Shown: positions 17,301 to 48,177, counted from the first letter of the stretch. The stretch: 64,000 bases of DNA from an uncultured Planctomycetales bacterium (GCA_964384465.1 CAYLLT010000020.1:2488-66487), one strand, 5' to 3'. The notes: generated by a model not told the origin, from the letters alone. Numbers and translations: made by a program.

Positions 17301-18033
17301 CGACTTCGCGGGCCAATCGCTCGTAACGTTCGGGCAGTTCGACCTCGCGCCGGCCGGTCCTCGGCGGGAGCAGCACCGTGTTTTCCAGATCGAGGGCGTA
17401 GGTGTGCAAATCGAATGGATGTTTCGTGTTGGTTAGCGGGTAGTGGTTGGGGCGACAGGTGACGGAGCCGCCGCCTTCCGCCTGCGTGGTGGTGACGATA
17501 TAGCCCAGGTACAGTCCGCTGGCCCGCGACAACTGGAACGCGATGTCCACGTAATCTTTGAGTTCCTGGATGGTGCTGGGTTCGATGATGGGGACGAACA
17601 GGTGACGGAACAGAAACCGCGAATCGGCGGGGACCTGCGTGCTCTCGCTCCACGGGTCGTCGCCGACGACGATCACCGCTCCGCCTTCGGGATGCGGGCC
17701 GGCGAGATTCCCGATCGCGAGCGCATCGCTGGCCACGTGCAGGCCAACGCTCTTGAATACCGCCATGGCCCGCAGCGGGCCCATCTGCGAGCCGTTGACG
17801 GCCGCGACGGAGAGCGCTTCGTTGTTGGCCAGGCGGCCCTCGATGCCGTGCTCCTTGAGCAGCGGGGCACAGTCGGCCAGCACGTCGAAGAACGTCGCCA
17901 CCGGCGAGCCGGGATAGCCGGTCATCAGGTGGACGCCGCCGTCGGTTTCGAGGGCGCCTTTGAAGATCAGCTCATTGCCGTTGAATACGTCGGAGCCGGC
18001 GTTGCGCAGGAACTTCGGTGGGACGGTTTTCAT
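14374..18033 (-). CDS. Indolepyruvate:ferredoxin oxidoreductase family protein (fused IorA-IorB type 2-oxoacid:ferredoxin oxidoreductase)
   Basis: About 1219 aa. The N-terminal motif is NGNELIFKGALETDGGVHLMTGYPGSPVATFFD. The TPP-binding region reads GMGLGGGTGSGIDPF...FMGDSTFFHSG. Two ferredoxin-like Cys clusters are present (CPGCPHRD and CEFCLECTNKTGCPG). I prefer the ATG at 18033 (MKTVPPKF); the ORF-track start is 18168. Confidence 0.85.
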   Translation of the reverse strand: MKTVPPKFLRNAGSDVFNGNELIFKGALETDGGVHLMTGYPGSPVATFFDVLADCAPLLKEHGIEGRLANNEALSVAAVNGSQMGPLRAMAVFKSVGLHVASDALAIGNLAGPHPEGGAVIVVGDDPWSESTQVPADSRFLFRHLFVPIIEPSTIQELKDYVDIAFQLSRASGLYLGYIVTTTQAEGGGSVTCRPNHYPLTNTKHPFDLHTYALDLENTVLLPPRTGRREVELPERYERLAREVERIGLNQLDDAPTNEVLIVSSGLAHQYVVQALHDVGLAGEVPVFKLALTYPLDRRQIEPLLARFEHVLIVEERRSFIEDQIAEIAIRYAQANGRRVSKIWGKQFPGGGSGFPSVLGLNVSIVADRLGRFLRAIESPLARRAAAGIETELRIISDTAKIEMSIPARTPTFCPGCPHRDSSNVLLQVKQQFADEAYMRKHHKRGAIDLVFHGDTGCYTMLMFEPNAPLMHNYSGMGLGGGTGSGIDPFIRNKQVVFMGDSTFFHSGSAAISNSIAGRQDLTYIILANGTTAMTGHQPLPALDADLLDRPIQSQDIETIARAITGGKSPVVRVDPEDREGYKALLEKTILADGVKIIIADKECGITYHRRRMGHERAEQSRRGFVRKKVYMNVTPEVCEFCLECTNKTGCPGLTIEQTNYGPKIQTDLSWCVNDGACARLDACPSFEEVIVTRKHPPTPRGHKITLEDIPEPVIDFAGDVWRAWIAGVGGMGIGTATSILVHAGQHEGYHVQFSDKKGLAIRNGGVYSQLIFSKSPSPPRPLAHSPSLPVSMTVPYGKADLLLGIDLLEAARAVDPDAGFRISSADRTAAVINTDRTPTIRTLMGLDEFKVDELERALRQATRSDRYFSARITSLCERIFGTKLYANITMLGVAFQRGLIPVSLEAMKEGIRNTIRADFKKNLRAFDIGRKLVSHPHLFAEHEPEPSLARTVREKAAYLNMRLLGKRRALRHEGTRPAGKRRLPDTKLARSYKHMVYTTLRACRELDRQTMQDIAVRIYDLVQWGGVRYAQRYVQRVRRMFLADHERYEFAATRAVVWNLAKLMLIKDEFFVAHLLTSYEKMRRDRHRYNINPSNGDRIRYRRTFHPRFFGQQIDISPPHWMLYCLRSLRFLRKAMPWWHREDRELLMWYEGVVDGFSFDNEVTYRQYVDVLKSVETITGYAEIRLPKIEATRAKAEQLLAALNSPQRRRAAEKKASS

Positions 18034-18196
18034 GATGGTCACGGATGGTTTCGTTGCTTCAGACCCCGCCGGCCCTTCGACCCGCGCCGGGTCGAGGGAG
18101 GCTTTCCATCGACGTGACCATGATAACGCCGGGATGACGCGGTTGCCAGTTGGCTGGAGCGACACCACATTCTTTGAAATTCGGTGCAGAAACGAC

Positions 18197-18224
18197 TTGA
18201 CTCGCCGCGGATCTGGTGTATACT
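18197..18224 (+). promoter_or_regulatory. Near-consensus sigma70-type promoter
   Basis: TTGACT (18197-18202), a 16-nt spacer, then TATACT (18219-18224). Confidence 0.55.
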
Positions 18225-18270
18225 ATGGGTTCATGGATGCCGACGCGGAAGTCGGCTCCGGTTTTAGACG

Positions 18271-18402
18271 ATGAAGATTGCCATGACCAGCCTTTACCTG
18301 AATACGGACACGTGGACGACCCAGCAGATTTTCTGCTCGGCCGTGCACCCGTTTGCCGCCGTTTGCCGCGGTAACAAGATGCACGAGCGAGGTGGGCCGT
18401 AG
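18271..18402 (+). CDS. Hypothetical 43-aa small protein; alternatively the body of a small non-coding RNA
   Basis: My reading of the ATG...TAG ORF gives MKIAMTSLYLNTDTWTTQQIFCSAVHPFAAVCRGNKMHERGGP. It is too short for the ORF track. It sits between a strong promoter and a strong intrinsic terminator. There is no clear SD and I recognise no homologue. Confidence 0.3.
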   Translation: MKIAMTSLYLNTDTWTTQQIFCSAVHPFAAVCRGNKMHERGGP

Positions 18403-18430
18403 GGTAAAGTTGATTTTCGAGGAACTTTAA

Positions 18431-18464
18431 GCCCTGCGACCCGCGAAGGTTGCAGGGCTTTTTT
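18431..18464 (+). terminator. Rho-independent terminator
   Basis: The 11-bp stem GCCCTGCGACC / GGTTGCAGGGC (one G-U pair) has a 6-nt loop and is followed by TTTTTT. Confidence 0.75.
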
Positions 18465-18656
18465 GTTGGGCATTTTTTCCGGCGGTTGGCGGCGGGTCGA
18501 GGCTCTCCGGGGTTCGCCTCGACCCGCCGGGGGTCGGAAAGACAGGATGGCGGCGCTGCGGCGCCGCGGGCGATTCGTATCGATTGCACGTTTTTAGAAT
18601 CGACATCGCGCGAGCGGAGACGGTGCGCGCCAAGGTCGGCGAAAGGTGGTGCTCAG

Positions 18657-19265
18657 ATGGTTGCGGAACTGAAAAGAACAGAACGATACCGAAATTCTCC
18701 GGAGATCGTCCTGCACGAACCGGAGGACCGGCCCGTCGTCTATTACCTGGGCCAGCGGATCTATTTCCGCCCGCTCGAGGTTTCGGACGAGCCGCAGTTG
18801 CGCCGGTGGGTCAACGATCCGCGCGTGTGGGCGACGCTTCAGCATCGCGGGCCGATCAATGCCGCCCGCGAGACCGAGTGGATCGAGTCTCTGGGCAAGA
18901 GCACCAGCGACTACACCTTCGGGATTGTGGTCAAGGAGAACGACCGGCTGATCGGCTCCACCGGGCTGCATCGAATCAATCCGGTCACGCGCAGCGCGGC
19001 GTTCGGCTTAATGATCGGCGAGGTGAGCCAGCACAACCGCGGCTACGGCAGCGAGGCCACGCGGCTGGCCGTGCGGTATGGATTTCGCGAGCTGAACCTG
19101 AACCGCATCGAGTTGTCCGTGTACGCCGACAACTGGCGGGCGATCCGCGTCTACCAGAAGGCGGGGTTCGTGCACGAGGGCTGCCTGCGGCAGGCGGTGT
19201 ATCGCAACGGCCGCTACCTCGACGAGTACCGCTTCGCGATCTTGCGTGAAGAGTGGAGCGAGTAG
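18657..19265 (+). CDS. GNAT family N-acetyltransferase (RimJ/RimL-like)
   Basis: Motifs include YFRPLEVSDEPQLRRWVNDPRV, the acetyl-CoA region GEVSQHNRGYGSEATRLAVRYGF..LNLNRIELSVYADNWRAIRVYQKAGF, and VHEG. I prefer the ATG at 18657, which is preceded by AAGGTGG. Confidence 0.85.
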   Translation: MVAELKRTERYRNSPEIVLHEPEDRPVVYYLGQRIYFRPLEVSDEPQLRRWVNDPRVWATLQHRGPINAARETEWIESLGKSTSDYTFGIVVKENDRLIGSTGLHRINPVTRSAAFGLMIGEVSQHNRGYGSEATRLAVRYGFRELNLNRIELSVYADNWRAIRVYQKAGFVHEGCLRQAVYRNGRYLDEYRFAILREEWSE

Positions 19266-19291: not shown

Positions 19292-19365
19292 GCCCGGATA
19301 GCTCAATTGGTGAGAGCGTCTGAATCATAATCAGAAGGTTGTGGGTTCGATTCCCTCTCCGGGTA
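19292..19365 (+). tRNA. tRNA with anticodon CAT (elongator Met, or Ile2 if lysidinylated)
   Basis: The cloverleaf reads: acceptor GCCCGGA/TCCGGGT, D arm GCTC-AATTGGTGA-GAGC, anticodon arm TCTGA-ATCATAA-TCAGA, variable loop AGGTT, T arm GTGGG-TTCGATT-CCCTC (one U-U mismatch), discriminator A. CCA is not encoded. It lacks the initiator hallmarks (no three G-C pairs in the anticodon stem). Confidence 0.8.
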
Positions 19366-48103: not shown

Positions 48104-48177
48104 CGAGGCCGACGGGGCTCGAACCCGCAACCTTCGGATCGACAGTCCGATGCTCTAACCAATTGAGCTACGGCCCC
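48104..48177 (-). tRNA. tRNA-Asp (anticodon GTC)
   Basis: The reverse complement folds as GGGGCCG-TA-GCTC-AATTGGTTA-GAGC-A-TCGGA-CTGTCGA-TCCGA-AGGTT-GCGGG-TTCGAGC-CCCGT-CGGCCTC-G. CCA is not encoded. Confidence 0.9.

Follow-up and report, generated by a model that had tools for sequence, protein, structure and literature searches.

A leader with an anti-terminator overlapping its stop codon precedes a GNAT acetyltransferase gene in Planctomycetota and is a probable ribosome-dependent attenuator

The locus upstream of the GNAT gene

We analyzed a small transcription unit in a 64,000-nucleotide (nt) stretch of DNA from an uncultured Planctomycetales bacterium (GCA_964384465.1 CAYLLT010000020.1:2488-66487), referred to here as the window. 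The unit lies upstream of a gene for a GNAT N-acetyltransferase and comprises a promoter, a 5' stem-loop, a short open reading frame (ORF) and an intrinsic terminator, as listed in Table 1. These parts had been proposed in a sequence-only reading of the same DNA, and the promoter, the 6-bp hairpin and the 43-codon ATG-to-TAG ORF with its quoted peptide were all present as described. The same reading rated the promoter as the best in the window, which holds for the + strand but not overall, as two sites on the - strand match 11 of 12 consensus positions (48241 and 14035). The former (TTGACA-16-TATACT), closest to consensus in the whole window, is located just upstream of a tRNA-Asp gene (48104-48177, - strand). 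Likewise, the terminator was found at the expected position and with its T6 tract, but the stem consists of 13 bp (8 G-C) rather than the 11 bp originally counted, with a loop of 6 nt and a hairpin energy of -23.9 kcal/mol. It had also been described as the best intrinsic terminator in the window and is the cleanest canonical one on the + strand.

Table 1. Features of the transcription unit and the adjacent GNAT gene, in window coordinates
Feature	Position	Strand	Basis or detail
Sigma-70-type promoter: TTGACT (18197-18202), 16 nt, TATACT (18219-18224)	18197-18224	+	10/12 consensus positions
Predicted transcription start	~18231	+	From promoter position
5' stem-loop, 6 bp (GCCGAC gcggaa GTCGGC), in untranslated leader	18239-18256	+	Sequence
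Leader ORF, 43 codons, ATG at 18271 to UAG at 18400-18402	18271-18402	+	Sequence
Thr(ACG)/Trp cluster T-D-T-W-T-T in leader ORF	18304-18321	+	
Cys codons in leader ORF	18334-18336 and 18364-18366	+	
Region 2, predicted anti-terminator 5' strand, GUGGGCCGUAGGGU	18392-18405	+	Last three sense codons, UAG and 3 nt past the stop
Spacer hairpin AAAGUU ... AACUUU	18406-18428	+	Folding
Intrinsic terminator	18429-18465	+	Stem-loop 18429-18460, T6 at 18459-18464
Region 3, terminator 5' arm	18429-18441	+	Pairs with 3' arm
Region 4, terminator 3' arm	18448-18460	+	Pairs with 5' arm
GNAT N-acetyltransferase gene, 202 amino acids, GAAAGGTGG just before	18657-19265	+	Pfam Acetyltransf_3

The whole 243-nt transcript has a folding z-score of -3.6, and the 5' untranslated region (UTR) of the window copy folds at -16.1 kcal/mol. 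We can only guess at the role of the 5' stem-loop, for which RNA stability and RNA polymerase pausing are both candidates. A second ATG within the ORF (18283, MTS...) is the start shared with two relatives of the same genus and gives a peptide of 39 amino acids (aa); it is probably the true start of the leader, judging from this comparison. Promoter-like sites were found three times in a 3-kb region, compared to 0.6 expected from shuffled sequence. As the unit is single-copy in its own genome, a repeated copy or mobile element was rejected, and identity as a tmRNA or tRNA was ruled out. A scan of positions 17900-18800 against Rfam (E <= 10), a check suggested by the sequence-only reading, returned only terminator-shaped matches with E >= 0.07, far under the gathering scores, and thus gave no family match.

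The GNAT gene product matches Pfam PF13302 (Acetyltransf_3) with E = 1.5e-26 (94.2 bits, cut-off 25.4). When compared with NCBIfam, no equivalog was reached at cut-off, with PseH as the best model (84.9 vs. 93.1). The nearest solved relatives of the protein are aminoglycoside 6'-N-acetyltransferases and SpeG spermidine acetyltransferases (E ~1e-16).

Conservation, the competing helices and the leader ORF

In a DNA search of related genomes, the 3' 80 nt of the unit, from the last codons to the T-tract, were 73-86% identical across many genera. A covariance model (R1) was built on the 3' 106 nt and used for genome searches. Matches were obtained in 32 of 35 genomes of the family (Phycisphaerae, Planctomycetota), 42 of 151 genomes of the order, and 4 of 150 genomes elsewhere in the phylum. 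In a pattern scan of one genome per species the carriers were Planctomycetota, mostly metagenome-assembled genomes assigned to Phycisphaerae or 'Planctomycetales'. The relatives share a common anatomy that consists of a near-consensus promoter, often a 5' hairpin, an ORF of variable sequence, the motif GGGCCGUAGGGU, a spacer of ~25 nt and the terminator. The motif, which contains the stop codon, is almost invariant, and the terminator has the form AAGCCCUGCGGCC...GGUUGCAGGGCUUUUUUGUUGG. Of 36 relatives, 19 have a 5' UTR hairpin of -8 kcal/mol or lower, whose position is kept although its sequence is not, and an equivalent of the small spacer hairpin is predicted in relatives, again with variable sequence. 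A literature search found no report of this element.

The key to the mechanism is an anti-terminator that overlaps the stop codon and was missed in the sequence-only reading. Region 2 is complementary to positions 18431-18444, which comprise the terminator 5' arm and part of the loop. Helix statistics were obtained from 46 distinct sequences aligned by the terminator model. In the helix formed by regions 2 and 3, 83.8% of the cells were paired, compared to at most 50.5% when the partner was slid. The same helix contained 35 doubly changed cells versus 11.3 in shuffles, and 0 of 500 shuffles reached 35 in this set of related, non-independent sequences. Clear compensatory pairs in the anti-terminator include GGGUCAUAGGG/CCCUGUGACCC, GUGAACCGUAGGGC/GCCUUGCGGUUCAC, GGUCCG/CGGACC and CUCCGUAGGG/CCCUGCGGAG, and RNAalifold predicted the identical helix unprompted. 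The terminator helix was paired in 95.6% of the cells, with 42 doubly changed cells. Covariation thus links the terminator arm to two alternative partners, a pattern characteristic of a two-state switch.

Folding energies of the two forms were compared for 41 sequences. Before region 4 has been made, the anti-terminator is the minimum-energy fold in all of them (41/41). The mean energy was -29.0 kcal/mol for the anti-terminator with the stacked spacer hairpin and -22.6 kcal/mol for the terminator hairpin, and with region 2 free the anti-terminator form was favored over the terminator form in 31 of 41. The spacer hairpin stacks on the anti-terminator helix and closes its loop, but can also coexist with the terminator. 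With regard to geometry, the stop codon lies inside the anti-terminator strand, 29-35 nt ahead of the terminator arm (mode 31). By this modeled geometry, the spacing would let a terminating ribosome cover region 2 while the terminator is left unblocked. Termination efficiency has been described to increase with distance from the stop codon (PMC4824070), and the 29-35 nt spacing agrees with the distance effect as it is presented in that account.

In all 41 relatives, the reading frame leading into the conserved stop stays open over 34 codons or more, which the other two frames do in 44% and 41%. The start codon is located 13-65 nt past the -10 element in most relatives, and the stop is UAG in nearly all copies. 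Leaders range from 34 to 56 codons in length, with many indels. Among pairs of close relatives, the ratio of nonsynonymous to synonymous substitution (dN/dS) was 0.35-1.55 for the leader and 0.12-0.20 for the GNAT gene of the same pairs. The leader dS is lower than the GNAT dS, which argues for constraint at the RNA level. The Gly-Gly-Pro (GGP) end is conserved at synonymous positions, and where it changes (GGS*, GGA*) it does so alongside the terminator arm with pairing kept; we therefore attribute it mainly to RNA constraint. The comparison of related genomes that the sequence-only reading recommended thus showed a structure kept with compensatory changes and a peptide that evolves almost freely.

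Despite this freedom, certain residues recur. Of 36 peptides, 35 contain Cys and 33 contain Trp, and the majority terminate in G-P. Compared with the long genes of the window, leader codons are enriched for UGC (3.5-fold), ACG (3.0-fold) and UGG (1.9-fold), but not for ACC. The Thr(ACG) codons are grouped about a Trp codon, as in TDTWTT (window) and TTTWTT (a congener). Counting back from the stop, codons -4 to -14 show a 6.5-fold enrichment of Cys, which occurs in this stretch in 22 of 27 leaders; in the leuA and cimA leaders described below, the Leu and Ile codons occupy the same zone. Some of the UGC enrichment may reflect the RNA, as UGCGG is complementary to CCGUA.

We also compared what lies downstream of the element in different genomes. 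A GNAT orthologue (50-79% identity) was found downstream on the same strand at 14 of the first 20 loci and at ~30 of 39 Phycisphaerae-type elements with enough flanking sequence, with a projected start 0-500 nt past the terminator. A strong promoter of the TTGAC-N16-TATAnT type precedes the leader in 23 of 27 GNAT-linked relatives. When a sigma-70-like scan with the same criteria was applied to the interval between terminator and GNAT gene, no promoter-like site was detected in any of the 27 relatives, and none was detected in the window at 18465-18657. Since a GNAT orthologue follows without an intervening promoter, the unit is a leader and not an orphan. It had been described as 'orphan' and 'self-contained', a view that does not fit a conserved module with a GNAT orthologue downstream in most relatives and a covarying anti-terminator. 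Among the options offered at the time, a terminator-controlled leader for the GNAT gene is supported by the GNAT synteny, the promoterless spacer and the conserved anti-terminator that competes with the terminator.

Other features were noted next to the unit and the GNAT gene. A tRNA-Met gene (CAT, 19292-19365) starts 27 nt past the GNAT stop on the same strand and, given their arrangement, the two genes may share a transcript in this genome. As a conserved feature, the linkage of GNAT to tRNA-Met was rejected because it is not kept in relatives. In addition, the unit is flanked by a pair of related GC-rich palindromes (..TCGACCCGC / GCGGGTCGA..), at 18075-18097 in the ior upstream region and at 18492-18527, where a 13-bp hairpin lies in the read-through leader that separates the terminator from the GNAT gene.

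The same architecture before other genes

Leaders of the leuA and cimA type were recovered as weaker matches of the same covariance model and were taken as positive controls. In another class (L130), a Leu-rich leader with 7 Leu in 19 codons is located directly before leuA (769.6 bits, cut-off 532). Ile-rich leaders precede genes for citramalate synthase (cimA; 634 and 675 bits, cut-off 450) and contain Ile runs such as ..GIIGIIG.. and ..IIGGIIIG... The cimA-type loci were found in the same family (L124:~500-2401), and in the cultured Anatilimnocola sp. NA78 (L100:5560-7394) and Bremerella (L058, L071 and L096). In Bremerella, the citramalate synthase gene is followed by a valS-like gene. In both the leuA and the cimA leaders, the UAG lies inside a ...UAGGG sequence that is paired with CCCUG.... 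Judging from their codon content and architecture, these versions are clearly classical amino-acid attenuators in Planctomycetota that read codons.

Another gene may be added to this list. A short ORF ending in ...RPGA-UAG, together with a CCCUGAGAC...GUCUCAGGG terminator, was seen directly upstream of serS (L125:250-1950, and L127 on the reverse strand), and from this arrangement serS is possibly another leader-controlled gene.

Proposed mechanism, alternatives and known systems

We propose, with a probability of about 0.7, that the unit is a ribosome-dependent leader-peptide transcription attenuator that controls the GNAT acetyltransferase gene. According to this model, transcription would start at the strong promoter and the short ORF would be translated. 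The 3' end of the ORF, together with the UAG, would form the 5' strand of the anti-terminator, and the 5' arm of the terminator would provide its 3' strand. In the OFF state, a ribosome at the UAG, with RNA polymerase 30-65 nt ahead, would cover region 2 and the first spacer bases; the terminator arm would then be free for region 4, the terminator would form, and a transcript of ~235 nt would be released. In the ON state, a ribosome that is late, due to hungry codons or a translation inhibitor, or that never initiated would leave region 2 free. The anti-terminator would form first and, being at least as stable as the terminator, would permit read-through into the GNAT gene.

We infer from this arrangement that the position of the ribosome decides the fold. 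Termination after proline is poor, and we also infer that the frequent Pro-UAG ending prolongs ribosome occupancy and slows peptide release. Candidates for the sensed signal are general translation stress or the supply of the tRNAs for the codons UGC (Cys), ACG (Thr) and UGG (Trp). The model also hints that the GNAT gene is induced by translation stress or starvation.

Several observations weigh against this proposal. In the window itself, the anti-terminator is interrupted by one A x C mismatch, and its form has an advantage of only 2.4 kcal/mol over the terminator form (-26.8 vs. -24.4 kcal/mol). Duplexes between region 1 and region 2 (anti-anti-terminator) were no better than dinucleotide shuffles (mean z = -0.58); for some members, folding does predict local hairpins between these regions, and in one apparent case of compensation UGC has become UGU where its partner CCG has become CCA. 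No runs of a single regulatory codon were found in the leaders, unlike in classical attenuators. The spacer from the terminator to the GNAT gene extends up to ~500 nt in some genomes, and the promoter scan covered sigma-70-like sites only. Furthermore, the relatives are metagenome-derived kin and not independent, and the shuffle statistics for the anti-terminator overstate its significance. The association with GNAT is also not exclusive. A paralogous GGP-type leader with a terminator precedes a gene for a membrane-anchored YbjN-domain protein (L105, L112, L116 and L117; PF10722, E = 4e-13 to 5e-15), with no promoter-like site between the two. An intact switch was likewise found in five genomes, four of one genus and one of another, in which no GNAT orthologue was detected (E <= 1e-20). 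Because the module is kept without a GNAT gene and also stands before the YbjN-domain gene, it is portable and not GNAT-specific, and the unit could act in trans as well.

In the GNAT-less genus (g4), genes for tRNA-Thr, tRNA-Gly and tRNA-Phe follow the leader with no promoter-like site between (L033:958-1375, L048:1123-1197 and L049:1909-1983). The anticodon of the orthologous first tRNA-Thr is CGT in L033 and AGT in L048 and L049; AGT is an unusual anticodon for a bacterial tRNA-Thr. Matching of the leader Thr codons to the anticodon of the downstream tRNA-Thr was rejected, as ACG/CGT fits L033 but fails for L048 and L049. A motif, GGAGAGTGGTGCCTAGGGTCGAAGA, was observed downstream of the tRNA clusters, ~400-560 nt past the terminator (L033, L039, L048 and L052), and had no Rfam match at gathering score. 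A broader and rather doubtful idea is that the leader gauges how much decoding can be sustained by scarce tRNAs present as a single species (Thr-ACG, Cys-UGC, Trp-UGG and Met), with no single pathway as its object, that in the GNAT-less genus it gates tRNA-Thr and the neighboring tRNA genes, and that the terminated RNA may act in trans. If this were true, a feedback loop would exist in that genus, whereby tRNA supply goes up when the leader is decoded slowly.

An independent, trans-acting small RNA (sRNA) gene, possibly of dual function, would also have its own strong promoter and terminator. The adjacency to GNAT would then be inherited synteny, and the single-stranded GGGCCGUAGGGU would serve as the seed for target pairing. 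The strong identity across genera of the 3' 80 nt, the best-conserved part of the unit, and its persistence in the five genomes without a GNAT gene are in keeping with such a role, and there is precedent in Sinorhizobium, where the terminated trp attenuator RNA rnTrpL is described as acting in trans (PMC7968998, 10.1101/606483). However, a plain sRNA has no use for a covarying alternative to its own terminator helix, nor for a frame that is open in every one of the 41 copies, and the three-way pairing constraints already account for the high sequence conservation. In the contexts examined, moreover, GNAT, the YbjN-domain gene and the tRNAs are all without a promoter of their own. We therefore regard an sRNA gene as unlikely. 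Least probable of all is a functional small protein of ~40 aa, with conserved Trp and Cys residues and a Gly-Gly-Pro end, for which the terminator merely closes the gene. Although the frame and these residues are conserved, the dN/dS values, the variation from 34 to 56 aa and the many indels make a stable product unlikely, contrary to one option of the sequence-only reading. The C-terminus, with its synonymous conservation and covariation with the terminator arm, bears the mark of RNA constraint, the anti-terminator would be left without a role, and there are no conserved modifying or partner genes nearby save the GNAT gene. A RiPP (ribosomally synthesized and post-translationally modified peptide) precursor or a toxin-antitoxin system was rejected, as no conserved maturation or antitoxin genes were found and the peptide is nearly unconstrained.

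Alternatively, the RNA might be recognized directly, either as a ligand riboswitch or by an RNA-binding protein that binds GGAGGUGGGCCGUAGGGU, or the stop codon itself might be sensed through release factor 1 (RF1) activity or UAG read-through. Region 2 is conserved beyond the needs of pairing, a Shine-Dalgarno (SD)-like GGAGG is present 7 nt before the stop in about two thirds of copies, and UAG is used almost throughout. But the RNA from the promoter to region 2 varies in sequence and length, unlike an aptamer, and yet keeps one frame open; no Rfam family was matched; and the Leu and Ile versions of the architecture clearly read codons. Beyond the UAG, 76% of copies keep the frame open through the terminator, versus 51% and 41% for the other frames, an excess that would suit stop sensing. 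Nevertheless, a second stop occurs 1-12 codons past the UAG in a quarter of copies, so read-through is not general; for this reason, and with the frame open in only 76%, programmed UAG read-through or RF1 sensing was retained merely as a minor alternative. A +1 frameshift of the prfB type, suggested by the SD-like GGAGG, was rejected on inspection, as CCG-UAG offers no re-pairing codon and GNAT has its own start. We consider this group of explanations very unlikely.

If the proposed attenuator is correct, the Planctomycetota possess a compact ribosome-operated terminator switch with one architecture, in which the UAG lies inside a ...UAGGG / CCCUG... anti-terminator. Besides the amino-acid genes leuA, cimA and possibly serS, this switch would act on an acetyltransferase of the aminoglycoside/polyamine/RimL-like type, a YbjN-domain protein and tRNA genes. 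Gene regulation in this phylum is almost unexplored, and we found no paper on leader-peptide attenuation in Planctomycetota. The covariance model can be used to annotate such leaders in metagenome-assembled genomes. The elements would make up a so far undescribed family within a known class of regulators, and their range of target genes is unusual.

The unit resembles the E. coli leaders trpL, leuL, thrL, hisL and ilvL in its promoter-proximal short ORF and in having a terminator before the structural gene. As in classical attenuators, the anti-terminator and terminator share a strand, and a ribosome at the end of the leader would cover the anti-terminator and cause termination. In contrast, the present leader has no cognate codon run, is long at 34-56 codons, and carries its stop codon in the middle of the anti-terminator strand. 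Its regulated gene is non-biosynthetic (GNAT, and elsewhere the YbjN-domain gene and tRNAs), duplexes between its regions 1 and 2, sought as a pause or anti-anti-terminator hairpin, do not exceed shuffles, and it does not match the Rfam leader families of the classical attenuators.

Trans action has a parallel in the trpL attenuator of Sinorhizobium, for which the cited accounts describe a terminated sRNA, rnTrpL, and a peptide, peTrpL (PMC7968998, PMC7298713); here too the terminated product of an attenuator could work in trans. By analogy with trpL, a role in trans might account for the persistence of the unit where GNAT is missing.

Upstream ORFs (uORFs) of variable sequence that sense translation stress have been described for whiB7 in mycobacteria, toiL in E. 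coli and bmrB-bmrCD in Bacillus (PMC10274678, PMC12121999, PMC4191407). As outlined in these sources, ribosome stalling at the uORF leads to anti-termination into a stress or resistance gene, particular residues are enriched in the uORF, and many stresses are sensed; toiL differs in that it works through occlusion of the ribosome-binding site (RBS) and Rho rather than an intrinsic terminator. A further point of likeness is the GNAT gene, which belongs to a superfamily with aminoglycoside and polyamine acetyltransferases. Nonetheless, the unit has no sequence relationship to these systems and belongs to another phylum. Mycobacterial polycysteine short ORFs, which are described as sensing Cys supply through ribosome pausing (10.1101/834739), share with our leader the enrichment of Cys codons. 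By that account, they contain Cys tracts, are leaderless, control translation by unmasking of the RBS and precede Cys-metabolism genes, whereas the leader described here has one or two Cys codons, a transcription terminator and a GNAT gene downstream. Taken by analogy, the nearest functional counterparts would be the whiB7 and toiL uORF attenuators, with the mycobacterial Cys-responsive short ORFs also close, and the unit may represent a natural 'generic' translation-sensing attenuator comparable to the mycobacterial whiB7 uORF.

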